From Catajapyx aquilonaris (lineage: Eukaryota): 64,000 bases of DNA. Location of the stretch: the NCBI GenBank assembly GCA_000934665.2, contig KZ538027.1:1-64000 (forward strand), given 5' to 3'. A program made the translations under genes and the position numbers. The notes under the pieces are model-generated. The model saw only the letters and a list, made by a program, of their open reading frames with translations. It was not told where the DNA came from and did not search any database. Shown one piece after another: positions 1,137 through 29,400 of this stretch (position 1 is its first letter; each line of letters starts with the position of its first letter).

Positions 1137-1941
1137 ATGGTGGGAAAAGTACTATTTCTCGCGCCGATTTACCTCGCGTTTTTCCTCACTTTCCCAAAGG
1201 TACGACACTTATTATTGTGAGGCTACAAAATATGCCTATACATAATATACTTGTTTCATGCCTTTCAATCAGGATGTCAAGTCTGGTGGCGAATGTGAGT
1301 TTGAGTCTCCGGAGCTGCTGCAATTTGTAGGACACGTGAAGGAATGTTTGGATGAATACCCTAAAAATTTACTGGTAATAAGTACATGTCAAAAAAGGTT
1401 GTTAAGAATATTTACAGTACGGTCTGTGTACCCTTCCAGTGCTGGCTGCAATGCTTCATGCAGAAGATAGAAGTGGTAAGATTACGTGGCTGGTTAGTGT
1501 CATTGCGGCAAATACTAACAATGTCATTTTCACAGGTGAGCAAGTCAGGTGTGGTAGACTTGGGCAAGATGGATGAACTGCTGGCTGCTATGCCGGATGG
1601 AAACCTGAAATCCGTTTTAACTACAGCGAAAGGAAAGTGCCTCGTAGGAAGTAAGTTATAAGCATTGTGTCCTGGCAGAATACTGTACAAAATAATCATC
1701 TAAATGTGAATATTTTCAATGTCAACAGTTGAGAAATTTGACGTCACACTTGACAAATGCGCAGGATTCAGAACGGTTGGAATTTGCATGACTGTATTGC
1801 TGCAAAAGGTACGCTGTTATATATAAAATTGGGTGAAATTATGCAACTACGATAATTGCCTGCATTTTTTCCCCCAATCAGGAGTGCTCCAATTTCGTCA
1901 CTTTCGTGAAGGAATATGCGGCACAAGTGAAATCTGCTTGA
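1137..1941 (+). CDS. OBP-like secreted 8-Cys protein, copy A1 (151 aa, intact)
   Basis: Exons 1137-1199, 1273-1374, 1440-1475, 1536-1650, 1729-1808, 1882-1941, all GT-AG with an open frame. Signal peptide MVGKVLFLAPIYLAFFLTFPK, then DVKSGGECEFESPELLQFVGHVKECLDEYPKNLLCWLQCFMQKIEV...KCLVGIEKFDVTLDKCAGFRTVGICMTVLLQKECSNF. Spacing C-X16-C-X9-C-X3-C-X41-C-X13-C-X8-C-X8-C includes the OBP core C-X3-C...C-X8-C. Confidence 0.8.
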
Positions 1942-2781: not shown

Positions 2782-3997
2782 ATTAAGAGGTTAGGTCTAC
2801 TTAACTGCTGGTCATTCTTTTGTAAGATGTTCTTTTCGCATTTTTTGCACACCTCTTGACCTTACATCATTAAACATTAGTGGCTTGAAAAATCCCTGTC
2901 ATTTGGCAGGTAAAATATTACATGCCAAGTTTTATAACAATCCAAAAAAATAGAGGATGGACCTTTGATTTTTTTTTTTAAATATAATCGCCAAGCACGA
3001 ACGTCCACTCAACAATCATTACCACTGACCTCTCTGTACACGCATAACCAATCCAGAAAATGACAGTAATTTGCTTTTGCTCGCTCTTATTTTTCTCTGT
3101 CCAAAACAGCGAAATGAAGTTCACGCCAGGTCAAAGGTTACATGTTATAAACCTCATTTGTCTAACGTACATCCCAAAACTAATATATTCTTGCAGTACA
3201 CAACATTGCTGTGGAGCAATATCATCGGGATATTTTTTACAAGTTTTGTTCATTATAATTTATTATAAGCCGTCAATCGAGATTTATATTTATAGGACAC
3301 GTGAAGGAATGTCTGGATGAACATCCTACAAATTTAGTGGTAAGTATGCATGCCAAAAAAGGTTGTTAAGAAATTATTAAAGTACGGTTTGTATAACCTT
3401 CCAGTGCTGGCTGCAATACTTCATGGAGAAGATAGAAGTTGGTGCCTCATTGTTATTGCCGTAAAATACTAACAATGTCATTTAACAGGTGAGCAAGTCA
3501 GGTGAGGTAAATTTGGCCAAGATGGATGAACTGCTGGCTGGTATGCCCGATGGAAACCTGAAAAACGTTTTAACTACAGCTAAAGGGATCTACAGGTAAG
3601 ATAATAAGCAATGTGTCCGGGCAGAACACTGTACAAATCATCTAAATGTGAATATTTTCAATGTCAACATCCGAGAAATTTGACATCACACTTGACAAAT
3701 GCGCAGGATTCAGAAGTGCTGGAATTTTTATCATTGTATTGTTGCAAACGGTACGCTGTTACTTGNCCCCCCCCCCCCCCCCCAATCAGGAGTGCGCCAA
3801 TTTCATCACTTTCGTGAATGAATATGCGGCCCAGGTGAAATCCTCTTGAGCCTTTTGAGCATATAGGACATGGACACGTTGCTCCTGTGAAACGCACATG
3901 CAATCATATCGTCATAAATAATAATTAGCACGTCCATTCTTACCACTTTGGTAATTATTTTATAGTACATAAATCCATGCATCAAATCCTCCCAGCC
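2782..3997 (+). repeat. Direct segmental duplication of about 438-2090 (A1 locus) with an internal deletion
   Basis: Starts attaagag(g/gt)taggtctacttaactgctggtcattc and ends catcaaatcctcccagcca in both copies. About 945-1325 of the first copy is missing at about 3280-3292. Confidence 0.9.
3293..3849 (+). pseudogene. OBP-like pseudogene A2
   Basis: Paralog of A1 lacking the signal-peptide exon and half of exon 2. The exon-3 donor is altered, the exon-4 Cys is deleted (gctaaagggatctacag), the exon-5 acceptor is mutated (caacag to caacat) and an exon-5 Cys is changed to Phe. Confidence 0.8.
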
Positions 3998-4504: not shown

Positions 4505-5720
4505 AGATCTAAAAAAAACATTGTCACCTGATAAGTTACAACAATAAGAGGCAGCAATTTCCATCACCTTCCGCCGACGTCATCAGTGACCTACAGCGCA
4601 TAAAATGTGACGTGACATAGAGCACTTCAAAGGACTCATTCAGTGTATTGCCAGGACAAGATTACATATGTTTTCCTATACTTGCTTGTCCTACGTGCAT
4701 GATCGTCCTTAGCGATATTGCCAGACCCCAGGTCTATGCAAATCTGGACATGCAATGCGATGTAATGATATATTGTGGTCCACTGGCACTATTCAGATCT
4801 CACGTGTAGTACCAGTCTGCAAATCGCAATGAGGAAGTGTTGGGTTACGTCTGTGGCGGTGCTCTCTGTCCTCCTCTTGGTCCACTATCCGCAGGTATTG
4901 TTGCCCACAACATATGAATTATCTGATATTTCACACTAAACTTGCAGAATTCTTCGGCTGAAGAAGAAGAATGCGACTTCCAAGCTTCAATCCTGATGGA
5001 ATACATGGGTCCAATCGCACACTGTATGCAGAAGCACCCTAAAAATTTAATCGTAAGTTCACTTTGCACAAACAAATTGCAGTCAAGTACAATGCAATTA
5101 TCATTTCCAGTGTGTGCTGCAGTGCTTCTCTGAGACCGTCGGAATTGTAAGACTTGTTGTCGTTAATAACCACATGCTAAATAATATACACATGCCCTAA
5201 TTTTTAACAGATGAAGACGGATGGGACACCGAACGTTGAGAAAATTAGAGAAGTCATGAACAAGTTTCCTGAAGGAAAGCTGAAGAAAACTATGGTCAAA
5301 GCTGGGCACGAGTGTTATCAGCATAGTAAATATTTTCTTTCGTATGACAAACTTTTTTTGAGTCTTCGACTTATTTTATAAATTATAATTAATTCAACAG
5401 CCATAATCACTGATGTTGAGTCGCCTACGTGCCAAGGTTACCTCAAATTAGCCATGTGCTTCGGTAACATCATCATGAAAGTAAGTAGAAATTTCTCATT
5501 AATATATTGTTCGGACTGCTAATTATTTTATCTTCATCAAAGGCATGCCCCAACTTTGGACCATTCATGAAAGACTTCCTGGAGCAGTGGAACAACGATC
5601 ATCGCGAATAATCTTCAACAATTAATTTCCTGCTGCTTCATGAAACTTACATGTAATTGAAAATAAAACTAAACTTGCAATGTGTTGAATGCTCTTTAAC
5701 ATTCCTATGTTATTTAGGCC
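4505..5720 (+). repeat. Direct duplication of about 9670-10910 (B-type gene with promoter)
   Basis: Near-identical upstream, exon, intron and 3' UTR sequence starting at agatctaaa...attgtcacctgata. Confidence 0.9.
4829..5611 (+). CDS. OBP-like secreted 8-Cys protein, copy B1 (156 aa, intact)
   Basis: Exons 4829-4894, 4948-5052, 5111-5146, 5211-5325, 5401-5480, 5543-5611. Signal MRKCWVTSVAVLSVLLLVHYPQNSSA. Same Cys spacing as A1; C-terminal ACPNF resembles the Cys-Pro of Plus-C OBPs. AATAAA at about 5662. Confidence 0.85.
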
Positions 5721-5769
5721 TTAAAGGTAATTGTTTCCTTCAGCGAAAATTGGGAAAAAATATTAACTA

Positions 5770-5944
5770 GGTGCCCTTCGCCAAATCATCAGTTATTTCC
5801 GTGCAATTTCTGTGTCAATTGAACCATTTTTGCGGTCATATACAGAGTGTATGTTTTCTGGAGAGGGGGGAGGGGGAGGAAGGGTCGCATATTTATGGAA
5901 ACACGTTTAGGGAGTCGCAGTTGGTAAAAGGTTGGAAACCACTG
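5770..5944 (-). mobile_element. hAT-like non-autonomous element end
   Basis: Reverse strand begins CAGTGGTTTCCAACCTTTT, a typical hAT/Charlie-like terminus. It is followed on + by ccctagga, resembling an 8-bp CTAG-centred target. The other end was not identified, so the left boundary is approximate. Confidence 0.5.
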
Positions 5945-6184
5945 CCCTAGGACCTCTGCCCCTATTAATAATTGTTTTTACGTTCATTGCATGTCCTGTT
6001 GTAGCGACCTCACTATGGCAACTTAGGGTCGCTTGACCTGTAAAATTTAATTCAGAGAGATGTCATACGACTGACTCACGAATTAAGAGAGAAAGAGGTG
6101 TGCTGGTGGTACTTTTTTTATTTAATTGAACTTCAAATCATGCAAGGGATGATGACATTATATCCAAGCCGGATGGCCGATACA

Positions 6185-6580
6185 TCATTTATCATTGCGC
6201 ATGTGCTGCAAGAAATCCTTGATGAATTGCGTAAAGTTTGGGCATTCCTGAAAGCCAACAAATTGCAATTAGTGGCATCACAGCAGATGTAAATTTTACA
6301 TGAAGTAGTTTCCTCACCCTGCGAATGGTGCGATGCAGGCACAATGCAAATCTGGTAAATCCTGCACAATCAGGCTTGGTGATATCAACCGACTCGTCTG
6401 AAAGATGGTAAAACTATGTGAGACAAAGTACACGAATATTATTATGGTCCTTAGGACTTACACTTATCGAGGCAATCCTTCTTTAATGCAACAACTGCAT
6501 TCTTCAAATTACTTGGAGGTATTAAATTAACCACCTCATCATACATTGCTTTGTTTATAATCCCCTTCTCATCTATCTGC

Positions 6581-6652
<72 letters not shown>

Positions 6653-7008
6653 TGGTTCATACAAATCCGATTTTCTCTGTGAAGCACTGCATCAAGCACT
6701 GAAAAGATAATTATGAAGGTTATTCATAGTTTTTCGTAGTTGTTACTTAGATTTTATTGAAGTAATTATTGAGTTATTACCAGCATGCGATCAGGATGCG
6801 CGTTGAAGCAGACTGCAAAAGGGGCAGTGAAATGTACCAACTCAGGAGAGTTGAATTCGCAGTCAGCCTTCGCTTTCTCACCATATATTTCCTGAGAAGA
6901 AAAGGAGTGCATAAACTGCACACAACATTATTCCTAATGTCTCACCTGCGTATTCTGCAGCAACAATACGACCAAGATCAGCTGGAGACAATTAATGTTG
7001 CCCGTCAT
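6185..7008 (-). CDS. OBP-like secreted 8-Cys protein, copy C1 (155 aa, intact)
   Basis: Minus-strand exons 7008-6946, 6891-6781, 6698-6663, 6576-6462, 6397-6318, 6247-6185. Signal MTGNINCLQLILVVLLLQNTQEIYG. Motifs CEFNSPEL, CLMQCFTEKIG, DCLDK, PDCAGFTRFALC, ECPNF. Confidence 0.85.
6581..6650. repeat. (TAA)n microsatellite, about 23 units, in intron 3 of C1
   Basis: Directly visible. Confidence 0.98.
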
Positions 7009-7427
7009 TATATTGACTGCTCTGGGGGCACTATAAAGTCGAAAGCCACAACTTCTCTTTTTATGATAATTTTTTCTCTTATCCCTACATCCCTTTGACG
7101 AAATTCGTGCATCACAAAAATTGCGAAAAGGAAGTCACCTCAACAATGACCAAGGGATATGCAAATGAATTATTGCGAAAACCACGAGATGTCCTGGAGA
7201 TATGCAAATTTACCAATTATTTACATGATTGTGCAAGTGTTGGGTCAAAGACTGCGGAATATTTTGCGATTCTGGTGACATTGAAAATAATTCAGGTGGC
7301 ATTTATTCTATCAGTGTCTTAGTAAATAACATGAGAATGTTAAAGAGTATTCAATATATTGCAGGTTTTAATAAATTTTCAATTACGTGTAAGTTACATG
7401 AAGCAGCAGGAAATTAATTGTAGAAGA

Positions 7428-7643
7428 TTATTCGCAATGATCGTTGTTCCACGGCACCAGGAAGTCTTTCATGAATGATGCAAAGTTGGGGCATCCCTTT
7501 GATGAAGATAAAAAATAATTAGCAGTCAGAACAATATATTAATCAGCAATTACTACTTACTTTCATGATGATGTTACCGAAGCACATGGCTAATTTGATG
7601 TAACCTTGGCATGTAGGCGACTCAACATCAGTTGTGATTATTG
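7428..7643 (-). pseudogene. Truncated OBP-like copy B3 (exons 5-6 only)
   Basis: Minus strand encodes TDVESPTCQGYIKLAMCFGNIIMK and GCPNFASFMKDFLVPWNNDHCE*. Homology to B2 stops at about 7643, where unrelated sequence leading into a LINE fragment begins. Confidence 0.85.
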
Positions 7644-7949
7644 GCTCCGAAGCGAGCTCGGTAACGGGCAATGGGGTATAAAATTTATAAAATCAAGCTG
7701 CACTTACATTTGAAGGAAATAAGGTATCTAGGATAAGCAGATGCAATGTTATTAAAAATTACTTTGAAATATTTGGAATATCAACAGCTAGTTTCTGATA
7801 AATTGGTAGAAGAGAACTAGACAGTTATGTCCTTAGAGGAGGCTTGGTATTGTTTCAAGTCCTCCTTAGTGAGTAGTGGTGTTGATTTTTGTGGTATGGC
7901 TAAGGTGGGTTGTAAGAAGGGGGATCGTTGGTAGAACAAGGAGATGGCT

Positions 7950-8295
7950 GAATATTCAGAGTGGGTTATTTATGTCGGGTAAGAGTTGTGTAGATCAGAT
8001 ATTCTGTATGAGATTCGTGATAGAGAAGTATTTAGCTGTAAACAATAAGGTTTATGTTGCTTTTGTAGACTTACAGAAAGCACATATATGGCGGCACAGT
8101 GAGTAGGGATGGTTTGTGGGAGGTTCTGAGTCTGGAGTGAAGGGCCACCTGCTGGAGGCTGTAAAGTCATTGTATGAAGAGAGTAGAGCTTGTGTTAGAA
8201 CTAGTGGGGGTTTCTCTGACTGGTTTAACATTAGTGTTGGGGTTAAGCAGGGTTGTGTCACGTCTCCCTGGTTATTTAACTTGTACTTAGATCTA
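7950..8295 (+). mobile_element. Degenerate non-LTR retrotransposon reverse-transcriptase fragment (RTE-like)
   Basis: Peptides QSG.FMSGKSCVDQIFCMRFVIEKY...YVAFVDLQKA and GVKGHLLEAVKSLYEESRACVR...SDWFNISVGVKQGCVTSPWLFNLYLD are non-LTR RT motifs. The frame is broken by a stop codon. Confidence 0.85.
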
Positions 8296-8423
8296 GTCCA
8301 TGATGTTGCCAGCTTTACGGCCGTACGAGAATTTCTCAGCTGAGAAAAGGGTGGTGAAACGCACGGGACCTTGAGTATCCTAATGTCACTGTCACCCCAC
8401 TGTCACTGTCGTCACTATAAGTA

Positions 8424-9668
8424 TACCTTAACCACTGCGGCGTTGTCAGCAAAAAAAGAGAGACACCATCAATGCCAGTGTCTGCATTGACGGATAATGC
8501 GCACTGTGCTCATACTCAGCTGTGCTTATATCCTTCCCAATTAAGCAGGGTTGGTTATATTTGAGCCATTTCCCACAATGACCAGGAAGATGGGTCTGAC
8601 CAGTGTGGGATCAGATAATTATGCAAATCCAACATGTAGTGCTCATCCTATTGTGACGATGGGCGACACTATACATGTCAGTTTGTAACGAGCAGAACTC
8701 GTGTGTGTAGCGGTGTGTCATATTCATAAAATTGGGTGGAAATGTTGGCCTATCTTATTAAGTAGCATCCAAGCTTTCCATGCACTTTCCCATCGAGAAA
8801 CAAGTCCAGAAAGGGAATGGATATTCACGGCGACTGAATGGGCATGGGAAAGGATCATGTGACGGGGTCGGAGGACTAATGAAGCACCACACGACACTAC
8901 ACAATCTGACCCATGTTGCAGTAGATATCCCATCCATTCTGCAGAAGATTAAGTCAGGGTATTAAGTGCTTCTCTAGAAAACCTGCACATCATACTTGCA
9001 ACCCAAGATCGTGTGGAAAAGCGTGTGGCAAAAGGGATTCAAAGTTGCCATCATTGGTTCGTGGACAATGGATATACAATAATGACACGTATATGTCTCC
9101 TAACAAGAGGTCCAAGTAAGTGCAACTTAAATACTGTCAAGTAACTTCTTCAATACTACAATAAAATTCACAACAAAAGTTAGACTATATCAGTTCACGC
9201 ATATTAATATGCGAACAACTGTAACCAAGTCTATGATGTAGCATATGGAATGTTGCAACTGAAAAAAATATACATAAATTTCACAATGGTTACAGTTCAT
9301 TATGACTTTAGAACTGCAAGGATGTTGAAAGACACTAAATGAAAGCAAAAAATATCACTTTTCATAAATTTGAATCTCATTTATCAAGAATCAGGTTTTG
9401 ATATTATTTGATCACAGAACCAGTCTTTCCTTTATGAAATATATAAAAAAATATTGCATATTAAAAATAGTGTTTTCAAGATATTAATTTTTGAAATGTG
9501 CATATCTGAAACAAAAATCCCCACTCTGAAATAAATTAGTATCTCACTGAATACAAATATATATCATAATAGAACTCATGCTACTTCGTTATCCAAAAAA
9601 TAACGATTAAATATTTAAAATGGCTTCTTACAGAAAATATACCGGTATTCTGAAACGGAACCACCCTC
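8424..9668 (+). mobile_element. Degenerate DNA transposon, tentatively Sola2-like
   Basis: The peptide GHGKGSCDGVGGLMK (about 8840-8885) resembles a transposase HGK..CDG.GG motif that I associate with Sola2 from memory. The region ends ...ccaccctc exactly where homology to the B1 promoter resumes. A second copy lies at the window start. Confidence 0.5.
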
Positions 9669-10008
9669 TAGATCTAAATAAAATTGTCACCTGATACAAC
9701 AATAAGAGACAGCAATTTCTATCACCAGCCTCCGACGCGACGTCATCAGTGACCTACAGTGCATAAAATGTGCCGTGACAGCACAGCACTTCAAAGGACT
9801 CATTCAGAGTATTGCCAGGACAAGATTACATACCGGTATGTTTTCCTATCATTTGCATACTTGCTAGTCCCACGTGCATGATCGTCCTTAGCGATTTCTA
9901 GACACCAGGTCTATGCAAATCTGGACATGCAATGCGGTGTAATAATTATATATTCTGGTCCGCTGGCACTATTCAGATCTCAAATGTAGTACCAGTCTGC
10001 AAATCGCA

Positions 10009-10797
10009 ATGAGCAAGTGTTGGGTTACGTATGTGGCGCTGCTGTCGGTCCTCCTCTTGGTCCACTCTCAGGAGGTCTTGCTGTCCACAACATATGAATT
10101 ATCGGATTTTTCATACTAATCTTGCAGAATTCTTCGGCTGAAGAGGAAGAATGCAACTTCCAAGCTTCAGCCCTGATGGAATACATGGGTCCAATCGCAC
10201 ACTGTATGCAGAAGCACCCTAAAAATTTATTCGTAAGTTCACTTTGCACAAACAAATTGCAGTCAAGTAGTCTACAATGCACTTATCTTTTCCAGTGTAT
10301 GCTGCAGTGCTTCTCTGAGACCATCGGAATTGTAAGACATGTTGTCGTTAATAACCACATGCAAAATAATATACACATGCTCTTATTTTTAACAGATGCA
10401 GGCAGATGGGACACCTAATGTTGAGAAAATTAGAGAAGTCATGAACAAGTTTCCTGAAGGAGAGATGAAGAAAACTATGGTCAAAGCTGGGAATGAGTGT
10501 TATGAGCATAGTAAATATTTTTTTTTCGTATGGCAAACTTTTTTTGAGTCTTCGACTGAATTTATAAATTATAATTAATTCAACAGCCATAATCACTGAT
10601 GTTGAGTCGCCTACATGCCAAGGTTACGTCAAAGTAGCTATGTGCTTTGGTAACATTATCCTGACAGTAAGTAGTAATTGCTGATTAATATATTGTTCGG
10701 ACTGCTAATTATTTTATCTTCATCAAAGGCATGCCCCAACTTTGGACCATTCATGAAAGACTTCCTGGAGCAGTGGAACAACGATCATCGCGAATAA
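10009..10797 (+). CDS. OBP-like secreted 8-Cys protein, copy B2 (156 aa, intact)
   Basis: Exons 10009-10074, 10128-10232, 10296-10331, 10396-10510, 10587-10666, 10729-10797. Close paralog of B1 with an identical last exon. The intron-1 donor (gtcttg) is weak. Confidence 0.85.
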
Positions 10798-11227
10798 TCT
10801 TCAACAATTAATTTCCTCCTGCTTCATGTAACTTACACGCAATTGAAAATAAAAATATATCTGCAATTTATTGAATGCTCTTTAACATTCTCATGTTATT
10901 TACTAAGACCTTGACAGAATAAATGCAACGTGAATCATTTTCAATGTCACCAGAATCACAAAAGATTCCGCAGTCTTTGACCCAACACGTGCACAATCAT
11001 GTAAATAATAATTATTGGCCTGGTAAATTTGCATATCTCCAGGACATCTCGTGGTTTTCACAACAATTCATTTGCATATCCCTTGGTCATTGTTGAGGTG
11101 ACTTCCTTTTCGCAATTTTTGTGATGCACGAGTTTCGTCAAAGGGATGTAGGGATAAGAGAAAAAATTATCATAAAAAGAGAAGTTGTGGCGTTCGACTT
11201 TTTAGTGTCCCCAGAGCAGTCAATATA

Positions 11228-11570
11228 ATGATGGGCAACAATTGTCTCCAGCTGCTCTTGGTCGTATTGTTGCTGCAGAATCCGCAGGTGAGATATTAGG
11301 AATAATGTTGCGTGCAGTTTATGCACTCTTTTTCTTCTCAGGAAATATACGGTCAGGATGAGAAGATCTGCGAATTCGGCTCTCCTGAATTGATACATTT
11401 CTCTGCCCCTGTTGCATTCTGCTTCAACGAGCATCCTATAAACTTGCTGGTAATAACTCAATAGTTAGCCTACTTCAATCAACTCTAAGTAACAACTATG
11501 AATAACCTTCGTATCTTTTCAGTGCTGGCTGCGTTGCTTCACGGAGAAAATCGGAATAGTATATGAACCA

Positions 11571-11650
<80 letters not shown>

Positions 11651-12061
11651 TTCTTCTTCTTCTTATGCAGATAGATGAGAAGGGGACTGTGCACAAAGAC
11701 AAGGCGGATGATCTGATTAGTCAAGTACCTGCAGGTCATTTGCAGAATGCATTGGTTGCATTGAAGAAGGAGTGTCTCGATGAGCGTAAGTCCTGAGTAC
11801 CATACAGTATATTAGTGTACGTTGCTTGTCTCACACAGTTTTACCATCTTTCAGATGAGTCGATTGATGTATCCAAGCCTGATTGTTCAGGATTGACAAA
11901 ATTAGCATTGTGCATGAATCGCACCATGCGCACGGTGAGGAAACTACTTCATGTAATATTTTCATAAGCAGTTATGCCACTAATTACAATTTGCTTACTT
12001 TCAGGAATGTGCAAATTTTATTACATACATCAAGGATTTCATGGAGCACATGCGAAGCTAA
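11228..12061 (+). CDS. OBP-like secreted 8-Cys protein, copy C2 (151 aa, intact)
   Basis: Exons 11228-11287, 11342-11449, 11523-11558, 11671-11785, 11855-11934, 12005-12061. Sequence MMGNNCLQLLLVVLLLQNPQEIYG-QDEKICEFGSPEL...CWLRCFTEKIGIIDEKG...ECLDEHESIDVSKPDCSGLTKLALCMNRTMRTECANF. Confidence 0.85.
11572..11663. repeat. (ATT)n about 26 units plus short (TTC)n microsatellite in intron 3 of C2
   Basis: Directly visible; paralogous to 6581-6650. Confidence 0.98.
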
Positions 12062-12470
12062 ATGAAGTATCGCCCATCAGGCTTGGATATAATGTCATCA
12101 TCCCTGGCATGGCTTGAATAAGTTGAATTAAATAAAAAAAAGTACCACCAGCACACCTCTTTCTCTCTAAATTCGTGAGACAGTCGTATGACATCTCTCT
12201 CAATTGATTTTACAGGTCAAGTGACTCTAAGTTTCCATAGTGAGGTCGCTACAACAGGACATGCAATGAAAGTAATAACAATTAATTGGGGCAGAACACC
12301 TAGGGACAATACGTCTTGCCGATTGAGACATATTTGGAGTGACAGTAATCAATGTTGACAAAATTTCATATGTCGAAACTCCAAAGAGTAGGCCAATTAC
12401 ATCATTAAGACATGACCTTCATGATATAGAAGCCAATTTGATGCCTAATCCACATTAGACCATCAGCATC

Positions 12471-13565
12471 ATGTACACCTCCTGCCTTGTCATTTTTCTT
12501 GTAGGTAAGTACAGTACATATTCAGGAGAGTAAGCACCTGACGAAATACATATCACATCGGACATACTGCAGTACAACTATACAAGTGACTTGACAACAA
12601 CAACAACAACATCACGACATTTCCATATGAGGGGTAGTCAGCGATGAAGGGAGACGCAAGCCAACCCAACATATGAACTAATAAAACTCATGAGAATAAA
12701 CCTAAAAACAACCTGTCCCACCCCCTACCCCTGCCCACCCCAGACAAATTGAAGATATTGGTAAATGTTTAACTTTCCAGTAATTCCTGGTCATCCGAGT
12801 GTTCAAAGCGAATCCATCGTCCCAACACAAGAGAATCCATGCATTTGCAGCTTAGATGGCTGGCAGAGGCAGCTGGCCAAAGAGCTCTTGGACAAGGACC
12901 TCTCCCGCTTGTCTCCAGAGCAGAGAACAAAAGCCCAGCTCAAACTGGGTCAAAATGGAGTCATACTGGTTCCAGGTCACATTCCAGATGTTAGAGCATC
13001 CACACACTTTCCTGGTCTCATGCTGGGTGAGGCAGGACATCCTTTGTCCTGTATGTGCCAAGCTGGTAAGCAAATGGTAATTTCATAGAAAAATAAATGC
13101 ACACGACTTTATCAGACAGATTTCCTTATTTATGGTCAAGGTTCACGTGTGATCTATGAAGTGATAGTGACGGGTGCCAAGTGGCACAAGTCCCTTCAGG
13201 ATCCCGAATCATTACTCTTTGAGCAGCTGTCCATGTATGTGAGCCACCACCTGGACACCATCTTCTCCTTGTCCCCTGCTCCTCAAACGCCCCTCCAGCC
13301 ATCCGCCTATGTCCGATCAATTGTTCTCAGCTACTCACGCTACCGGCAATCAGAAGTGTCAGCTACCATCGAGACACAGCTCAGCATTCGCATGCTCAAA
13401 GCAGGCGATAAAGTCAGGTCTGCCTTCGTCAAGTCCATCTTCAAGGGGATCGAGCTGGAACCGGAGCCCAAGAAGGACGATCAACCCCTGCCCTTTCTTC
13501 CTCTTACGCTGATCCTGGAGAAACCTTTCCGTGATATCACTGGCAGCTGCAATCGGTGCCATTGA
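12471..13565 (+). CDS. Secreted SEA-like domain protein, paralog 1 (247 aa as written; possibly frameshifted near the 3' end)
   Basis: Exons 12471-12504 (MYTSCLVIFLV), 12781-13065 and 13141-13565 joined by phase-1 introns. Segment KWHKSLQDPESLLFEQLSMYVSHHLDTIF resembles the first helix region of SEA domains. Strongly similar to the 14278 paralog. Confidence 0.7.
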
Positions 13566-14277: not shown

Positions 14278-15577
14278 ATGTACACCTTCTGCCTCATCGT
14301 ATTTCTGATCATAGGTAAGTAATTACTGCAATCTTATGTAACTAGTAGTCATTTTCACGCTGGCTCCCCACAACCAGTAATACCTGGCCATCCGAGGGTA
14401 CAAGGCGAATCCATCCCGGCGCAAGAGAACCCATGCATGTGCACCTTAGATGGCCGACAGAGACAGCTTGCCCTCAAGCTTTTGGACAAAGAACTATTCC
14501 GCCTGACTCGCGAGCAGAGGACTAAGGCCAAGCTCAAACTGGGACAAAACGGAGCCATCCTGATTCCGGGTGACGTTCCGGCAGTTAAAGCAGCCACGTA
14601 CTTTCCTGGGCTCATGCACAGTGATGCCGGAAAACTGCTGCTGTGCACATGCCAAGCTGGTAAGCAACGTCAGGAAAAATTGTGGTACGGACTTATTTTT
14701 CTTTTTGTTAGGTTCCCGTGTGATCTACGAAGTAACAGTGACGGGTGCCAAGTGGCACGAGTCGCTCCTGGATCCCGAGTCATTATTCTTCGAGCAGCTG
14801 TCCACGTACGTGAGCCACCACCTGGACAGCATCTTCTCCCTGTCCCCTGCACCGCAAACACCGCTCCAGCCATCCGCCTATGTCCGATCCATCGTCCTCA
14901 GCTATTCACCCTACCCTCCGAAAGGAGTGTCGGCTACCATCGAGACACAGCTCAGCATTCACATGCCCGATGCAGTCCTCAAAGTCAGGTCGGCCTTCAT
15001 TAAGTCCATCTTCAAGGGGATCAACCTAAAACCAGCGACTAACAATGACAACATGAAGCATCGTAAACCCCTACGCTTTCTTCCGCTTATACTGGTCCTG
15101 GAGAAGCCTTTCCGCGATGTGTCTGAAAGAAGGGTAAAAAGGGCCGCCACGAAGAAGGACAACACCGAAGAGGTTCTGGAGCAGGTTGGAGGAGCATGGA
15201 GAGGTACGTAGCCAAACACGTCGTGAACCCAGTAAATAATTACACAATTTGAGGTTCCGCAACAGTGCCACATTTTTCTAACACAAATTTCTCCCCCATC
15301 TGGACCAATTCCAGACACATCTTACAAAGGTGTAAGGTTTGGAGAAACGCCAGACAATCTCTATTACGTTACCATACCCGCATTTGTAGGTAGGCACAAT
15401 CCTAGTCATGCACGTCCGCACCAACAGCACTACAATAACATGCCAGATACTAACCCGCTAAATTTTTCAGGGCTGATGATACTGACGTGCCTCATTTTCT
15501 TCATGACAAAAATCAGAAGCCGGTTTTGCAACTGTTGCGGGGGACAAAAAATCATTGAAGGGAAAGAACAGCTGTGA
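14278..15577 (+). CDS. Type-I membrane SEA-like domain protein, paralog 2, isoform a (330 aa)
   Basis: Exons 14278-14314, 14378-14659, 14712-15203, 15315-15389, 15471-15577, all phase 1. Signal peptide, CMC...CTC domain, SEA-like domain, RRVKR, TM LYYVTIPAFVGLMILTCLIFFM and tail TKIRSRFCNCCGGQKIIEGKEQL*. AATAAA at about 15718. Confidence 0.8.
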
Positions 15578-16652: not shown

Positions 16653-17561
16653 ATGAATTTCTTTGGGAGCAAACCGACTGCAAAAGGTGAATATATTTGG
16701 CGTAAAATCTCTCATAGAACGTGGTGGAATCAGACTGTCTAAATAATAAACCGCACTAGTGACTAGTGCACCGACAAGTATTACTGCACGGTTTAATTGT
16801 ATGTGAAATTGTGAATAATTGCAGAGCAAATGAGAGAGAACGACCGGATGCTGCGGAAGGCAGGACGGGACATTGAGAGGGATCGGAGGCAACTGGAGAT
16901 GGAGGAGAAGAAGCTGGTAAGCGCAATTGTCGGTAAAAAAAAGGGTACGTAACGATATGACAAGTTACATTTCATTGATAGGAATTGGAGATAAAGCAGA
17001 TGGCAAAAGCGGGGAACAAGGCTGCGTGCGGGGTACTTGCGAAACAGCTGGTGCAGCTTCGTAAGCAGAAGTCTCGCACGCATACGGCAACCGGTAAGGT
17101 TAAGTCGGTGGGTTTCCAGGCGAAGTCGATGCAGGCTAATGTGAAGTTGGCCGATGCTATGAAGACGACCTCAAAGACTATGGGAGATATGAACAAGATG
17201 ATGAAGCCGCAGGACATTGCGAATACCATGAAGGAGTTCCAGGCTGCTTCCGCTAAGATGGAAATGAGTGATGAGATGATGAACGATGCGCTGGAGGATA
17301 TACTGGACGAGTCGGGAGATGAGGAGGAGTCTGATTTCCTGGTGCAGAAGGTGCTGGATGAGATTGGCATCGAGATGTCCGGAAAGGTGATCTTAATCAC
17401 TGCGAAAATTTTGTTTGGACAGAAACTTAACAATGTACTGCTTACAGGTTCGTGGTGCTCCGATGGCTCAAGGAGAAATCGGCGAGTCGTCCGCATCCAA
17501 GCAAAGGACGGACGAGATCGAGGCACAGTTGGCCCGACTTCGCAATCTCGACGCACAATAA
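16653..17561 (+). CDS. CHMP2B: Charged multivesicular body protein 2B (ESCRT-III, Snf7 family), 214 aa
   Basis: Exons 16653-16686, 16825-16916, 16982-17386, 17448-17561. Sequence MNFFGSKPTAKEQMREND...LELEIKQMAKAGNKAACGVLAKQLVQLRKQKSR...DEEESDFLVQKVLDEIGIEMSGK, with a C-terminal MIM1-like DEIEAQLARLR. Confidence 0.95.
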
Positions 17562-17591
17562 TTCTGAAGCCATTTTGCTAAACTGGCCCCT

Positions 17592-24100: not shown

Positions 24101-26426
24101 ATTTCTAATGCGGTTCTCGTGTGGGGGTCAGATCGGCAAACAGATCAAGACGCTCCAATTGACTTTCACTTTGGGGATTTAGCACCTGAACCTCTCCGCA
24201 CATCTTGACAAACGCTCCTTGTTTGAACGTGCACGGCACTAATCCTTAGTTCACGGTAAGATGTAACGGATTACGTTATAAGCAAGTTGCTGGGCTATAC
24301 ACAACTGAACTTTTTCAGACAATGCACTAACCTGCGACATAACCAGGGAGCATATACTACATACATGTAGTATACATGCTCCCTGACATAACACTGAAAG
24401 TAACAAGAGTAAATATTAACCTTTACAAATATGGCACTGAGAAAAATGCATAATTCATGTGATTGTTCTTGCAACAAGCAGTGCTCTTCAATGATTATAA
24501 TATTCAGTAACTAGAGCCCCGGAAAGTCAATTAGCATGAACCCAAGGCTGTACAGTACCGAGCACACATTGCAGGTGCAAAAAAAAAGGGTTTCCCTCAT
24601 AAATTTCTATGCGAACCTGACAAGCATGATTACATGCAGCAATTTGGAGCACCTAAATCAATTTGGCCGATGCCCAACAGGTTATATCCAATAAGTTATT
24701 TTGACTCTAATGCACTTGTAAATCTGGCCGCTCCCCCCCCCCCAAAAAAAACTTGTGCAGTTAAAAAATCCATGTCACGTGCCATTAGCAGGTCACAATC
24801 CTGAAAACTTCCAACATAAAGCCAGAGGGGTGAAAGGTGGTGAAAAGACAAAATAAAACAACCTGGCCATGCGAGAAAGTGAACGTATGAGCCGGGACAT
24901 CCTCATGGTTGAGCTTTGTCCTCTTTCAATGATATGCGCTCCACAGCCCGGTGTTTTGCCCCCATCCAAAACAGGATTTTGAGAGAGAAAAAAAAATTAT
25001 ATATGGCAGGAGCAAGGAGGGGGAAACATATGAGGTGCCACTTATGACCACAATTTTCATGTGTTTATGTGGTATTTCATGTTGTGACCTTTTTTCCAGG
25101 AAATTATGACCATCTGATTCATGTCTAGGTCAATTCTAGAAATTAATTTATTGGGACATGTTGCAACGCAAGAACGCCAAGTTGGTCATAAGTTACGCAC
25201 CGGTCCTGTTGTGTATGAAAGCAAACTGAAAGTTACCGCATTTGCACTCAAGTAAATTTTAAATGAGCACAAGACTGTAAATATGAGGATGTGACACACT
25301 CTCCAGGTAAAGTTACTGTTGAATACATAAACATTAGAAAATTGCAGGACTGCATTTAAAATGTAGGACGTCAAGCGGAGCAAATATTGCACACACATTC
25401 ATATAGAATTGCAGCTTGTCAGCGTTACTTTCTGAAACATTGCATGTCATTCGGTAACTTTAAAAACCAGTAATTTTCCACAAGTTTCCATCCGAATCGT
25501 ATATGACAGAAAGACACGCCCACACATTAAAGGACATATTTTTTTTGTCAACAATTTTTGACATCATTAATATGAATGGGCTTTGTTTCTCGATGCAGCT
25601 GAGTTATTACAGTGTTTTTCTCTTACCAGGAAAAGCAGCTGAGAATATTAAATTGGCTTCCATGCAGCCAACTTGCATTGCAAGTTGCAACTGTGAGTAC
25701 ACGATTGCATAAAGGGCTGTGTATTTACAGATGCAAGAGGACTGCGAATTAATCAGTACAGCAAGTAAGAAGACGTAAGAGATAGCATTGCAGTATTCAT
25801 TATTATTCTTTAATCATCTGTTTTTATTCCAACTCTTTGGACTGACATACTCTGTGTAACAAGTAAACAAAAAAATTATTACCAATTAAATTACAACTGC
25901 CTTCCAATGCTATAGTAACACACCTCACACAGTACTCAGCCACAATTTATGTCAACTCTGCCCAGGAAATGCATAATTGAATGTGTGCAGCGCAAACGTA
26001 ACTTTTGAATGACTCTTTAACCGAGCTGTAAATAGTTGAAATTGCTCTGTTAATACCGCTTGCAGTGATAATGCAGGTCATTTGCTAACCTAGCTTCAGC
26101 ACAAAAAAATTGCGGAAACAATAGTTGCTCCGTTGACATATTTGCATTGTAGTCAATGCTAAGCAATTTGCATTGGAGCCCCACTGGCCTGCACTGGAAT
26201 TCTACCGGGGCAACCTGAAAAAAAAAAAAAGAGGAGACATGTGAATGCGACTGACCATGATGGCGATGTAGTGCCTGTAGTGGAAAGGCAATGGGCCGTC
26301 ACCCCGTAGGAGGAACTGCTGGGTCCGCATGAAACACTCCAAGTACTGCGGGTGAAAGCCCATCACCTGGGTCAGGTGATCCAAGCGATTGTTCTGTAGA
26401 AATGCGTCGATGAACAGGACGTGAGT
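21191..26426 (-). CDS. SESN: Sestrin common core (7 exons)
   Basis: PA26/sestrin domain exons as listed in the long isoform. Confidence 0.97.
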
Positions 26427-29400
26427 CTGCGAAAGAGAAGAAGAAGAAACTGTCAGTGTTACGTACAATGCAAAATATCTGGTTGCAACGTTCAGTACAT
26501 TCATAACAATTTTAATTTTCCAGTTCATGACCCTGGCTTTGGCAACTTGAAAGCCATTCACTGCAACAATAGTTGTCAACATATGATCAGTATCGAAACC
26601 AGGACCAGTCCAAACGATCCAGCTGTGGAAGTGTCCCCCCTTCCAACCATAAGCAGCTGATACTTTTTAATTCAGGACCACCTTTTGGCTCTCCCAGCTG
26701 ACCTTCCCTCTTTGTCCCAATTTACTAAGACCCCCCCCCCCCCTCACAGGGAAGGGTTTGCTTCTTTTTTTTTATTTGCGCTTCCGGATGTACCTTCAAG
26801 GTCTTATTCAAATTTTTATTATCGCTACTGCACCCAACCCCTCCTGGCAAAACCATTCCTTTATGGTAGAGTGAATATCTTTGTTGACTCTCAACCAAAC
26901 CGTGGATTACCAGATTTACCTTCTGTTTTTCAACGAGCAAAACATCTTACATAATGATTATGCAACGGTGAGAAGAAGAAGAGAGAGAAAAAAAGTTTCA
27001 AAAGCGGGAGCATAATTATCATGTCACCTTGACATTCCCATATGTGCAGCATGGCGATAAATTCGAGACACACCGGTATTTATTATTTTCCTCTCGCAAT
27101 ATCCCCCCTTTTAAAAATGTCCCAACCGAACTTGCATGCGTACGGATGCACCGACCAGAAATAGAAACTTCAAGGTAAGGCTGTGGGGCCGATGGTCTTT
27201 ATTCGCGAATATTCATTTTTTTCGCAACATCCCGTCGCGTATTCGTATATTATCTTCATACGCGCGTAACATCATTATCAATATCGCGTGATTCATTAGC
27301 GACGAAAAGTATTCTCGGAAAAGGATACAAGAACAATGCCTGTTTAATGCTGCAAATGCCTCTGAATCACATGCATACTTAATCTGCTAAGGAAAAAAAA
27401 AATCTGCGGTATTATCGGAATTGAATACAAAAAAAATATACCCGGTGGTTTACCCTGCTAATGAAACCGCAACGGAAAAATGTATGGCTGTGCACATTAC
27501 ACAGAAAATTAAACAGAATGTTTTCCAACCTTTATCATTTTTTACAAGCTCACTTTCAGTATGCCAATTTTCATCACAGTACCGTAGTCTATAAAAGCGG
27601 GTTAGGTAGCCTGCATATGTAGACATACTTTATGCTTCATTATGTAAGATACACCCTGGACCATACGGGCCACCGGACCAAAAATCATCAGGAGATGGCA
27701 GACTATGTCATAATACAATTTTTACATCATCGCTGGCCATCCCTTTGGCTGTGCAAGGACAAATGACTTCATCCTGAAGGACCCACAGGGAGAATCCATC
27801 CATCCAAATCCCTGCACTCAACCAAATCCAGTTACGAAACGACCCAACACATGCAGTCATGTACTATTTTTTTTACATTGGACTCTATAGCAACTTTAAA
27901 AAAAAAAATCGAGAGAGAGAGAGAGAGACCTTCTACCCTTCCGTCATGGGGTGGTATAGAGGCAGCCCCCTAATTGCCCTCCCCTTAACTCGTCCCGAAG
28001 ACTATAAATCTTGTCCCCCTCAACGTGACCATGGGTGCTGTCAGAGGGTGTGCCACTTCAAAAACCCTCCTCATCCCAAATGGCCCAGGGGCAGTCCAAC
28101 CATCAAGGAAGAAGGGGAGGGCCTCTTTTAATTACCACCCGGCACGTTCGCATTGCCTTTTAAAACCAATCCCCCTGCTGAGACTTGACTCAACTTGTCT
28201 TCTCTTTTCCCAAGAAAACAAAAAAAAACGCCGGACTCCAAAAGCTCTAATGTCACGCACAAAGTGTAACAAAAATTCTCACCAAATAATTCAGTGATCA
28301 ATTTGCGACAAATTAACCGGCTTTCAAGTGGGCAGTTCCCGGCAACAAAGAGGATTTAGCAATCTTCCGAAGAAGAGCGCAGGTGTACAGAAATAAGGGC
28401 AGAAAAATTCCAAAAATCTGAACAAGCTCGAACTTGACTTTGCCTCAAACTAAAAATGTTGGAAAAATTCCAGACAAAGGCATTCGTATGGGATTCTTTG
28501 ACAATTGAATTAAAAACGGAGAACCTTTTATTACAAAATTTGACGAATGAATAACCAGCGTGTGTTTAAGTTAAATAAGCACATTTTAGGCACCAACCGA
28601 ACAAACTTTGATCATATATGCCACAACAGCCAAAAATCCGGACAAAGGCATTGGATGGACTTCCTTTGACAATCGAATACATAAAAAAAATTGGCACAAC
28701 ATTTTGATTTCAACAATCCGATGAATGTTTCCATCCAGTGTGTATTTAAGCATATAAGCACACTAACTTTAAAATTTGATCCTATGCCAGACATCCCCCT
28801 CAGCCGTCTTTAAAAAAACTGGAGGCCACATCACAAAGGGAAAAAAACCTGCCGGAGTTCTTTGTCCGATACTTAGTCACCAAGTTAATTTCATATCACT
28901 TTACACCTCGATCTCACAAAAAATAAAACCCCGTGCTTTCCCTCGACTTATTAATTGGCCGGTTACAGGTCAATCAACCCCAGCAACAATGCAAAAACTT
29001 ACGTCGTGTCCGACCTGCCCCATGGTCTCAATGTCTTGGGCTGTGATGGCCTCACAGCCGTCTGCTTCTCTAGCGACAGGAATCTTGAACACACTCACAC
29101 CCAGCCTCCCCCACTTAACAACAATGCCCAACAATCACATGTACTGTGTGCCACACCACGAGCGAACCGACTCGTTGTACGTCCCGGCACCGACTGACAA
29201 AACGGATGGTGGTAAACCCGGTTGGGGTGGTGGGGGAACTAGGGGAGAGGGTAGGAGAAGAGTGCAGTCAGCTGTGCAGCCCCGATCTCTCATTGGATCC
29301 GTGAGCAACCATTGAGGAGGTTGCATCAGCCTGTTGCCCCTGAGGACTATAGCACGACACACGGCTTAGCAACCCCAAGACCATTGTTGCCACGCGAAAG

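Follow-up and report, generated by a model that had tools for sequence, protein, structure and literature searches.

Introduction

Accelerated evolution of mature-peptide exons has long been described for venom and for further secreted multigene families, with crotaline PLA2 isozymes, serine proteases and three-finger toxins as venom-gland examples. In venom PLA2 genes the signal peptide, the UTRs and the introns are conserved, KA is about equal to KS and the cysteines are kept, as described in the accessible part of PMC7285919. The same part of this source describes segment switching for toxin exons, which was proposed for three-finger toxins. A second system, concerted evolution with a selected 'peak of divergence' (Teshima and Innan model), is formed by the neighbouring primate L/M opsin genes, where exons differ more than introns, intron divergence is lower than both synonymous and replacement divergence, dN is smaller than dS, and the introns extend over kilobases and contain tracts found by GENECONV (accessible parts of PMC3213168 and PMC3924837). 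In the gibbon opsin study, an intron divergence below that of both synonymous and replacement sites led to the conclusion of conversion combined with purifying selection (same parts of PMC3213168; PMC3924837). Published conversion tracts average a few hundred bp, and the rate of conversion falls with the divergence of the copies, as far as described in the accessible part of 10.1101/135152. Whether exons of secreted families exceed introns in divergence because of selection or because the introns were homogenised is an old dispute, on which the locus presented here bears.

Insect odorant-binding proteins (OBPs; PBP/GOBP family) are secreted proteins with an N-terminal signal peptide, a mature size of about 110-150 aa and a compact all-alpha fold, in which three interlocked disulfides surround a ligand pocket. 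OBP duplicates often evolve fast at the protein level. The classic OBP signature is C1-X25-30-C2-X3-C3-X36-42-C4-X8-14-C5-X8-C6 (accessible part of PMC5623005). Here, a cluster of genes is analyzed in a window of 64,000 nt of contig KZ538027.1, which is the whole stretch of DNA studied, and all coordinates are window positions.

Results

C1 and C2 are intact and transcribed genes in inverted arms

The paralogs C1 and C2 are located in inverted arms of 1.7 kb. Arm 1 (5945..7633, reverse strand), as obtained by repeat search and global arm alignment, contains psiB, a 3' fragment of a B-type gene (about 7632-7400), intergenic DNA, C1 and its 3' flank. Arm 2 (10594..12305, forward strand) contains the two final exons of B2, followed by intergenic DNA, C2 and its 3' flank. 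C2 (11228..12061, forward strand) consists of six exons (11228-11287, 11342-11449, 11523-11558, 11671-11785, 11855-11934 and 12005-12061) encoding 151 aa, with GT..AG introns and an intact frame. When the C2 exons were mapped onto the opposite arm, C1 (6185..7008, reverse strand) was obtained with six exons (7008-6946, 6891-6781, 6698-6663, 6576-6462, 6397-6318 and 6247-6185) encoding 155 aa, in which all introns are GT..AG and the frame is open. Exon 1 of C1 encodes a hydrophobic signal-like leader and exons 2-6 encode a 134-aa part with eight cysteines, the spacing of which is the same in C2. The C introns measure 54-112 nt and the exons between them 36-115 nt. Intron 3 of C2 contains an (ATT)n microsatellite (11562..11662, forward strand; C1 partner 6581-6661), which was excluded from the divergence counts.

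The window further contains the control paralogs B1 (4829..5611, forward strand) and B2 (10009..10797, forward strand), each with six exons and 156 aa, and the outgroup paralog A1 (1137..1941, forward strand; six exons, 151 aa), which has the cysteine spacing of the C genes. A2 is a true pseudogene, and the cluster consists of recent duplicates and this pseudogene.

Both C1 and C2 are transcribed, with splicing that agrees with the models, and are regarded as functional copies. Spliced X5 contigs, from one run, confirmed the C1 model at four of five introns, intron 3 with the microsatellite being passed over, and joined the C2 exons likewise at four of five introns. An X5 contig extended to 12150, which gives C2 a 3' UTR of at least 89 nt, and for B1 spliced transcripts were found at 5/5 introns. 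Contigs of three DNA runs from one sample, which may be the sample that underlies the assembly, showed no differences from either copy over 6090-6571, 6661-7074, 11162-11562 and 11676-12164. At 95% likeness, none of the alternative letters listed for these three runs fell in the exons of C1 or C2.

The encoded proteins have an OBP-like cysteine pattern

Cysteine spacings are 16, 9, 3, 41, 13, 8 and 8 in A1, B1, B2, C1 and C2. Cysteines 1/3/4/5/6/7 are separated by X26, X3, X41, X13 and X8 in all five intact genes, in agreement with the classic OBP signature. By inspection, exon 1 of all five genes codes for 20-22 residues that include a hydrophobic core, and the remainder comprises 130-134 aa. 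The proteins resemble insect OBPs from tandem clusters in that they are small, putatively secreted and share the classic cysteine spacing, and in that their genes are clustered recent duplicates accompanied by a pseudogene; they differ by two extra cysteines, the positions of which do not follow the Plus-C formula in the accessible part of PMC5623005. Judged by cysteine spacing, C1 and C2 are putative small secreted 8-cysteine proteins of an OBP-like type.

Searches of Pfam with unspliced pieces of 26-106 aa gave no family for 10 of 11 pieces and one match, to Pox_T4_C, that was below the cut-off (E = 0.078). Exons 2, 4 and 5, compared singly with PDB profiles, gave chance-level matches only, of which the best was a ribosomal protein (E = 0.023). 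No matches were obtained with exon-sized pieces by phmmer against 1.84 billion representatives or by word-index searches, and Atlas gave no usable match.

Divergence of C1 and C2 steps at the borders of the mature coding sequence

Divergence was counted on a MAFFT alignment of the inverted arms. A preliminary description of this DNA had noted C exons far more diverged than their non-coding surroundings, and this could be confirmed. In the mature-peptide exons 2-6, 82 of 395 sites differ (20.8%), compared with 25/276 (9.1%) in the introns without the intron-3 microsatellite (25/343 with it) and 61/863 (7.1%) in the flanks (Fisher, exons 2-6 versus introns p = 4e-5, versus all non-coding DNA p = 9e-12). 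Over all C exons 85/455 sites differ (18.7%), of which only three are among the 60 of exon 1, the signal peptide. The detailed counts given earlier were also reproduced: in exon 4 (6576-6462 versus 11671-11785) 28 of 115 nt and 19 of 38 residues differ, with two purely synonymous codon differences (alignment codons 101 and 105), the 125 nt 5' of the ATG differ at four sites, and the similar 3' flank differs at 20/240. The cysteines are untouched, as had been stated, with 8/8 kept in the mature part at identical spacing.

The change in divergence was sharp. In the outermost 20 nt at the edges of exons 2-6, 43/199 sites differ, and in the 20 nt just beyond these edges 14/182 (p = 1.5e-4). A second step was observed within exon 6 at the stop codon, where 13/57 coding sites differ versus 7/85 in the 3' UTR (p = 0.025). 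These steps at the intron borders and the stop codon indicate that the border of divergence tracks the coding sequence and not the transcript. A transcript-wide mutation bias was rejected on this low 3' UTR count within the same exon and on the few differences in exon 1.

Non-coding divergence of the arms is 8.9% (76/852) and homogeneous (chi-square p = 0.54) outside a promoter-proximal block of low divergence. This block (10984..11341, forward strand; C1 partner about 7250-6892) covers C2 promoter-proximal DNA, exon 1 and intron 1, differs at 13/347 sites (3.7%) and carries identical runs of 67, 59 and 59 nt, which are the longest three. Promoter-proximal DNA differs at 7/233 sites and distal DNA at 34/390 (p = 0.004). 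The block is either a constrained promoter and leader or a single conversion tract of ordinary length. Introns 4-5 differ at 17/134 sites and introns 1-3 at 8/142 (p = 0.058).

Control paralogs diverge evenly

No exon excess was found in the B1/B2 and A1/A2 pairs. B1 and B2 differ at 33/471 coding (7.0%), 20/312 intron (6.4%) and 28/355 flank sites (7.9%), with a dN of 0.061 and a dS of 0.130. They had been described as a nearly identical internal control; the near-identity does not hold, as 21/156 residues differ, but their role as control does, as the coding sequence diverges by about 7%, like their own introns and flanks. Between A1 and the pseudogene A2, exons, introns and flank all diverge by an equal 18%. 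The 3' ends of the three B copies (B1, psiB and B2) differ by 7.3-10.0%, and the non-coding divergence of the C genes equals that of B1/B2 and of these three 3' ends.

Small patches of shared states were observed among the 3' ends of B1, psiB and B2. These patchy shared states make it probable that the cluster has undergone some conversion.

Synonymous and replacement sites are both raised

In the mature part dN was 0.244 (0.186-0.315) and dS 0.276, resulting in a dN/dS of 0.89 (bootstrap 95% 0.53-1.54). dN/dS is not above 1, and positive selection is not proven in the classical way. By exon, the mature part gave values of 1.43, 0.49, 1.03, 1.20 and 0.22. For the whole CDS, dN/dS was 0.94-1.00 by NG86 and 1.11 by ML. 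The preliminary description had stated that a whole-CDS ratio well below 1 with introns as diverged as exons would speak against it; instead, the ratio is about 1 and the introns are less diverged.

Non-coding K was 0.080 (0.064-0.097) and K(intron) 0.097. The ratio dN/K was 3.1 (2.2-4.3), with dN <= K in 0/5000 bootstraps, and dS/K for non-coding DNA was 3.5 (1.9-5.9; NG86), with dS <= K in 0.0002 and dS <= K(intron) in 0.0008 of them. The rise at synonymous sites is about as large as that at replacement sites, which would not be expected from amino-acid selection alone. Four-fold sites, the cleanest synonymous measure, showed no rise (3/25 differ in C, 5/50 in B); codons for the same amino acid differ at 9/76 in C and 7/119 in B, which has the direction of the dS rise and is not significant alone. 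By codon position, 37, 20 and 27 differences were counted over 131 mature codons.

C1 and C2 are separated by 58 replacements, of which 32 score > 0 in BLOSUM62, and the net charges of the two proteins are -0.9 and -6.7. With paralogs about 30% identical, by which direction and timing are only roughly polarised, 23 replacements were assigned to C1 and 16 to C2, and 19 were unpolarised.

Changes at all three codon positions and a dN/dS of about 1 alone resemble neutral drift, and could be produced by coding-targeted mutation, relaxed constraint or chance, without selection for difference. This explanation is very improbable. Relative to the non-coding rate, dN is raised 2.2-4.3 times, and because drift without constraint is capped at the neutral rate (a ratio of 1 at most), relaxed constraint alone is insufficient. 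Moreover, the real pseudogene of the cluster diverges evenly from A1, adjacent double changes show no excess (19 observed versus 16.3 expected, P = 0.25) and the ts:tv ratio is similar in exons and non-coding DNA. Several trivial causes are excluded: CpG decay, with CpG transitions at 8/82 exon and 8/86 non-coding differences, and relaxed constraint, as frames, splice sites and all cysteines are kept, both genes are transcribed and dN lies above the non-coding rate.

Synonymous and replacement differences would be carried in together if stretches of exons 2-6 in one or both copies had been overwritten from distant C-like paralogs at other loci of the genome that are homologous in exons only, by micro-conversion or 'segment switching'. 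Such an import would account for a dN about equal to dS with both raised in coding sequence only, and for the very dense central patch of exon 4, where 21 differences fall within 60 nt (11686-11745). However, the differences are spread across all five exons and both lineages, and none of the alternative letters listed for the three DNA runs lay in the C1/C2 exons. An import of this kind is regarded as improbable. The A and B paralogs were rejected as donors, with about 46-53% nt identity to C1/C2 and a longest run of matching states at the C1/C2 differences of 6.

Possible conversion between the arms

The raised dS, and a K(intron) below both dS and dN, are predicted by an alternative history of the L/M opsin type, in which the true age of the duplication (dS about 0.28) would be about three times that indicated by the non-coding DNA. 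Conversion between the inverted arms would have kept introns, flanks and leader alike until about 8% ago, and conversions of exons 2-6 would have been purged by selection, as the roles of the genes had already split. The arms are inverted and lie about 3 kb apart, an arrangement that favours intrachromosomal exchange. The block 10984-11341 (about 360 bp) resembles a tract of ordinary length ending at exon 2, the B 3' ends share states patchily, and introns 4-5 are intermediate in divergence, as this history would predict for introns enclosed by exons under strong selection.

On the other side, a model with protected exons and mean tracts of 50-300 bp predicts a divergence of 0.16-0.22 for introns 2-5, where 22/222 was observed. 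For non-coding sites, a uniform age gave a LogL of -317.1, compared with -321.2, -332.4 and -338.5 for mean tracts of 10, 100 and 300 bp, with introns 2-5 predicted at about 0.20-0.22 in this comparison; mean tracts no longer than about 20 bp would be required for such short introns, and the fit was still worse than that of uniform age at every length tried. The exon edges have no shoulder of low divergence (43/199 within 20 nt versus 82/395 overall), the longest identical run of 67 nt is not exceptional by permutation (P = 0.08 for all sites, 0.40 for non-coding sites only), and no increase in non-coding divergence is seen towards the arm ends. In the C non-coding DNA no conversion tract of plausible length was found, the block 10984-11341 being the sole candidate. 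Even under this history the protein divergence would be unusually fast, as the dN/dS of about 0.9 is double the value for B1/B2 (0.40-0.47), a contrast based on few synonymous changes (18 and 9). An older duplication with homogenised non-coding DNA is considered less likely than not, yet a serious alternative. In the preliminary description, conversion of the flanks only had been proposed to remove the need for selection. Its prediction of the dS rise stands, but conservation of the introns equals that of the flanks, so that homogenisation would have had to act separately on six or more non-coding segments, and the model fits worse.

Discussion

Tentatively, and with slightly less than even confidence, the divergence of C1 and C2 is attributed to selection-driven acceleration after one young duplication. 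C1/C2 and B1/B2 would originate from a single recent segmental duplication, now inverted, and if the non-coding DNA records its true age, this would be given by the non-coding divergence of about 7-9%. The coding part of the mature protein would then have changed about 2.5-3 times faster than its non-coding surroundings, in C1 as well as in C2 and to a somewhat greater extent in C1, with signal peptide, promoter-proximal DNA, introns, 3' UTR and disulfide scaffold exempt from this acceleration. The likeliest driver would be positive (diversifying) selection on two carrier proteins for different ligands. Diversifying selection had been suggested before; the need for selection on difference is upheld by a dN of 2.2-4.3 times the non-coding rate, but the dN/dS of 0.89 and the raised dS count against the suggestion. 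Selection for difference between the mature proteins is required alike by diversifying selection and by conversion that spares the exons.

Neither amino-acid selection nor conversion tracts of ordinary length would explain a dS rise that steps down at every intron border and at the stop codon, with introns of about 60 nt remaining at background. A real rise at both synonymous and replacement sites, confined exactly to the mature CDS, was considered as well, although this is thought improbable. The duplication might have captured two ancient balanced allelic classes of one C gene, in which the exons would be old and the introns homogenised by allelic recombination, amounting to fixed heterozygote advantage; alternatively, a still-unknown process might diversify coding sequence specifically.

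The locus resembles the venom PLA2 genes, as described in the accessible part of PMC7285919, in its fast mature-peptide exons, conserved introns, UTR and exon 1, changes at all three codon positions, KA near or above KS, kept cysteines and young duplicates in tandem or inverted arrangement. It differs from the venom families in its OBP-like cysteine pattern without PLA2 features and in being one pair, not a series of isoforms, and nothing points to a venom or toxin function. With the L/M opsins it shares exons that differ more than introns between neighbouring paralogs and an intron divergence below that of synonymous and replacement sites (dS 0.276 versus K(intron) 0.097, the 4-fold count of 3/25 being weaker), as far as described in the accessible parts of PMC3213168 and PMC3924837. 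Unlike the opsins, C1 and C2 have a dN/dS of about 0.9, introns of 54-112 nt and no significant identity run.

The pattern itself is well known from venom and sensory gene families, and C1 and C2 extend rather than change it. The locus constitutes a small, clean natural experiment, with four genes that would stem from one event, in which B1/B2 diverge at a uniform background rate and the neighbouring C1/C2 three times faster, only in the coding part of the mature protein. Because the introns are so short, the predictions of selection and of homogenised introns would be clearly separable with one sister species. Should the acceleration prove adaptive, C1 and C2 would be candidate carriers that recently acquired different ligands, and the 58 replacements together with the charge shift of about 6 units may mark the sites of their specificity.

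Divergence of the C1 and C2 exons

The paralogs C1 (7008-6185, minus strand) and C2 (11228-12061) are located in inverted arms (7633..5945 versus 10594..12305), and the sites differing between them were counted in a global alignment of these arms. The exons encoding the mature part, exons 2 to 6, differed at 21/108, 6/35, 28/115, 14/80 and 13/57 sites (coding part for exon 6), respectively, and exon 1, which encodes a signal-peptide-like leader, at 3/60. Introns 1 to 5 differed at 3/54, 4/68, 1/87 (1/20 without its microsatellite), 7/64 and 10/70 sites, the 5' side of the arm at 41/623 and the 3' flank at 20/240. Exons 2-6 together (82/395) were more diverged than the introns without microsatellite (25/276, p = 4e-5) and than all non-coding DNA (p = 9e-12). 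A step could be observed at the exon edges, where 43/199 sites differed up to 20 nt inside and 14/182 up to 20 nt outside, and also at the stop codon within exon 6, with 13/57 coding sites differing compared with 7/85 in the 3' UTR. The figures that the preliminary description had given for exon 4 and for the 125 nt upstream were all reproduced, and the cysteines, which it had called untouched, are retained in both C genes (8/8). The excess of differences in the exons is real, strong and specific.

At the protein level, 93/151 aligned residues of C1 and C2 are identical. dN/dS was determined by NG86, LWL85 and ML; codeml and GENECONV were replaced by our own NG86 with bootstrap, by a permutation of run lengths and by a simple model of conversion. 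For the whole CDS, NG86 resulted in a dN of 0.22 and a dS of 0.22-0.23, and the ML ratio was 1.11. The mature part had a dN of 0.244 (0.186-0.315), a dS of 0.276 (0.16-0.446) and a ratio of 0.89 (0.53-1.54). With a non-coding divergence K of 0.080 (0.064-0.097), dN/K was 3.1 (2.2-4.3) and dS/K was 3.5 (1.9-5.9). Thus, dN/dS is not above 1, yet replacement changes far exceed the non-coding rate. NG86 counted 18.2 synonymous changes, about half of them in the 17 codons of the mature part that differ at two or three positions. Two cleaner measures gave lower values: four-fold sites differed at 3/25 in the C pair and 5/50 in the neighboring B pair, and codons for the same amino acid at 9/76 and 7/119, respectively. 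A rise in synonymous divergence of about two-fold is probable for C, but not a secure estimate. When the amino-acid changes were polarized, 23 were derived in C1, 16 in C2 and 19 remained unpolarized, and at the nucleotide level A1, another gene of the cluster, agreed with C2 at 38 sites and with C1 at 20. Judging from these states, both C lineages have changed, C1 more so.

Neighboring paralogs as controls

B1 (4829-5611) and B2 (10009-10797) were duplicated together with the C-bearing block, the B1 copy (about 4540-5716) having the same orientation as that of B2 (about 9700-10902). They differed at 33/471 exon, 20/312 intron and 28/355 flank sites, with a dN of 0.061, a dS of 0.130 and a ratio of 0.47. 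A1 (1137-1941) and the pseudogene A2 (about 3288-3851) differed by 18.2% in exons, 18.8% in introns and 18.3% in the flank. Since divergence is uniform in both the A and the B pair, the exon excess is specific to C1/C2. A2 is without exon 1 and the first half of exon 2, has lost three of the cysteines, carries Tyr at Cys4, Phe at Cys7 and a stop at the Cys5 position, and misses at least one acceptor; an N with a poly-C run at 3766, in its last intron, marks an assembly gap. Among the B1/B2 exons, the signal-peptide exon (10009-10074 versus 4829-4894) was the most diverged (8/66) and exon 6 was identical (0/69), the reverse of the pattern in the C pair.

The C1 arm has at its inner end an orphan B fragment, psiB (7400-7632, minus strand), made up of the two final B exons with their intron. 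Pairwise divergence among B1, psiB and B2 is roughly equal (7.3-10.0%). Where two of the three share a state that differs from the third, such sites are grouped over short distances, suggestive of conversion in small patches among these genes.

Several trivial causes of the exon excess were ruled out. CpG transitions made up 8/82 exon and 8/86 non-coding differences, adjacent double changes were close to expectation (19 observed versus 16.3 expected), and the transition/transversion balance was similar in exon and non-coding classes, which excludes CpG decay, multinucleotide changes and a distinct substitution spectrum. The step at the UTR, together with exon 1, rules out transcript-wide mutation. 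Mutational or neutral accounts receive the small remaining share of the probability. Donation from A1, B1 or B2 was also rejected, as they are only about 50% identical, with a longest matching run of 6; import from unseen paralogs, limited to the exons, is improbable.

Organization of the cluster

The six-exon genes, which encode small proteins with a hydrophobic leader, form a cluster at the start of the window (12.3 kb) and were modeled from the sequence and from exon mapping between copies. In the five full genes A1, B1, B2, C1 and C2, all introns have GT..AG ends and the frames are open. Besides the C gene, each inverted arm holds the final two exons of a B gene, the DNA between B and C, and some 245 nt of 3'-flanking sequence. 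A long (ATT)n microsatellite occupies equivalent positions in intron 3 of C1 and C2 (6581-6661 and 11562-11662); in C2 it terminates in (CTT)n.

Repeat and reverse-transcriptase remnants occupy about 7650-9700, including a weak RVT_1 match at 8107-8340 (E = 1e-3, below the family cut-off). Contig depth in three DNA runs reached hundreds to thousands at 5556-6083, 7668-8459 and 9252-9779, which border the duplicated arms; these segments are therefore dispersed repeats and may have mediated rearrangement. Two inverted copies of a sequence of about 210 nt, 94-95% identical, lie upstream of A1 (129-344) and in the spacer that separates the C arms (8491-8702); they probably represent one mobile element. 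Downstream of C2, a direct repeat (12820-13438 versus 14414-15009, 77-86% identity) was observed, the ORFs of which had no Pfam match. The cluster adjoins ordinary conserved animal genes, represented by ORFs with a Snf7 domain (16982-17578, plus strand, E = 5e-32) and with a sestrin/PA26 match (26205-26666, minus strand, E = 8e-24), which place the window in an animal genome.

Expression and integrity of the C genes

Spliced contigs were found in X5, a sequencing run of unrecorded kind that another study had produced from this organism. Predicted introns were skipped exactly, with GT..AG ends, in 5/5 cases for B1, and exactly in 4/5 cases each for C1 and C2; intron 3 of the C genes was absent from the joints because its (ATT)n repeat made the tool skip it. 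None of the splice joints occurred in the three DNA runs. Therefore, both C1 and C2 are transcribed and spliced as modeled. Death of one C copy was rejected, both being intact and spliced with all eight cysteines. Next to no X5 contigs covered B2 (9780-10571), unlike B1, C1 and C2, which could be an expression difference between the B copies or a mere contig gap.

Both C copies were covered by DNA contigs at similar depth and with 0 differences. An assembly artefact was thus rejected, although the DNA runs represent one sample that may be the assembly's own source and are not independent support.

Selection and gene conversion

Tentatively, we favor acceleration after a single young duplication, in which selection would have driven the divergence of the mature-peptide exons while introns, UTRs and signal peptide were conserved. 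It is rather unlikely, but worth weighing, that the exons are old and the non-coding DNA was homogenized by interlocus conversion. For opsins, PMC3213168 and PMC3924837 argue that an intron divergence below that of synonymous as well as replacement sites, with dN not above dS, points to intron conversion together with purifying selection against exon conversion, and this logic favors conversion for C1/C2 as well.

Conversion was modeled with geometric tracts, rejecting any tract that touched exons 2-6, with time taken from dS and the rate fitted to all non-coding sites. The C introns are short (54-112 nt), and with mean tracts of 50-300 bp the model predicted a divergence of 0.16-0.22 for introns 2-5, compared with 22/222 observed. 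Its LogL was -326.6 to -338.5 versus -317.1 for one uniform age, and even tracts of 10 bp fitted less well than the uniform age (-321.2); mean tracts are quoted in 10.1101/135152 as 'a few hundred base pairs', and as 250 bp (63-1000) in humans. Exon edges were also no less diverged than exon centers, no identical run exceeded expectation in the permutation, and the non-coding divergence of the C arms matched that of B1/B2 with no rise towards the arm ends. It was homogeneous (76/852, chi-square p = 0.54) outside one block, 10984-11341 (13/347), which extends from promoter-proximal DNA through exon 1 to intron 1; a single conversion tract of ordinary kind, or constraint on promoter and leader, may account for it. 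The model is crude, with exons fully protected and conversion independent of identity, and its misfit is an argument, not proof. Under either model, selection has held the mature proteins apart or pushed them apart, since divergence by drift alone is limited to the neutral rate. The earlier interpretation is supported in part, with both selection and conversion retained.

Protein family and known parallels

The five intact genes have an identical cysteine spacing (16, 9, 3, 41, 13, 8, 8). Cys 1, 3, 4, 5, 6 and 7 match the classic insect OBP signature as quoted in PMC5623005, and two cysteines are present beyond these six, so that OBP membership is a lead suggested by one defining feature. Blank or chance-level results were obtained with Pfam (single-exon translations and two stop-free stretches reading through in-frame introns), PDB profiles (exon 2, 4 and 5 alignments) and the protein atlas; word-index searches gave 0 hits, as did phmmer when a B2 stretch of 68 aa was compared with 1.84 billion representatives. 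These blanks say little on novelty, because the queries were fragments in which intron-coded residues diluted the signal. The net charges of C1 and C2 are about 6 units apart.

Venom PLA2 and other secreted families, as described in PMC7285919, have conserved UTRs, introns and signal peptides, change at all codon positions and a KA about equal to KS, and C1/C2 show the same. This kind of pattern is already known; what is new is the C1/C2 pair, whose introns are short enough for selection and conversion to be told apart when the genome of a relative becomes available.
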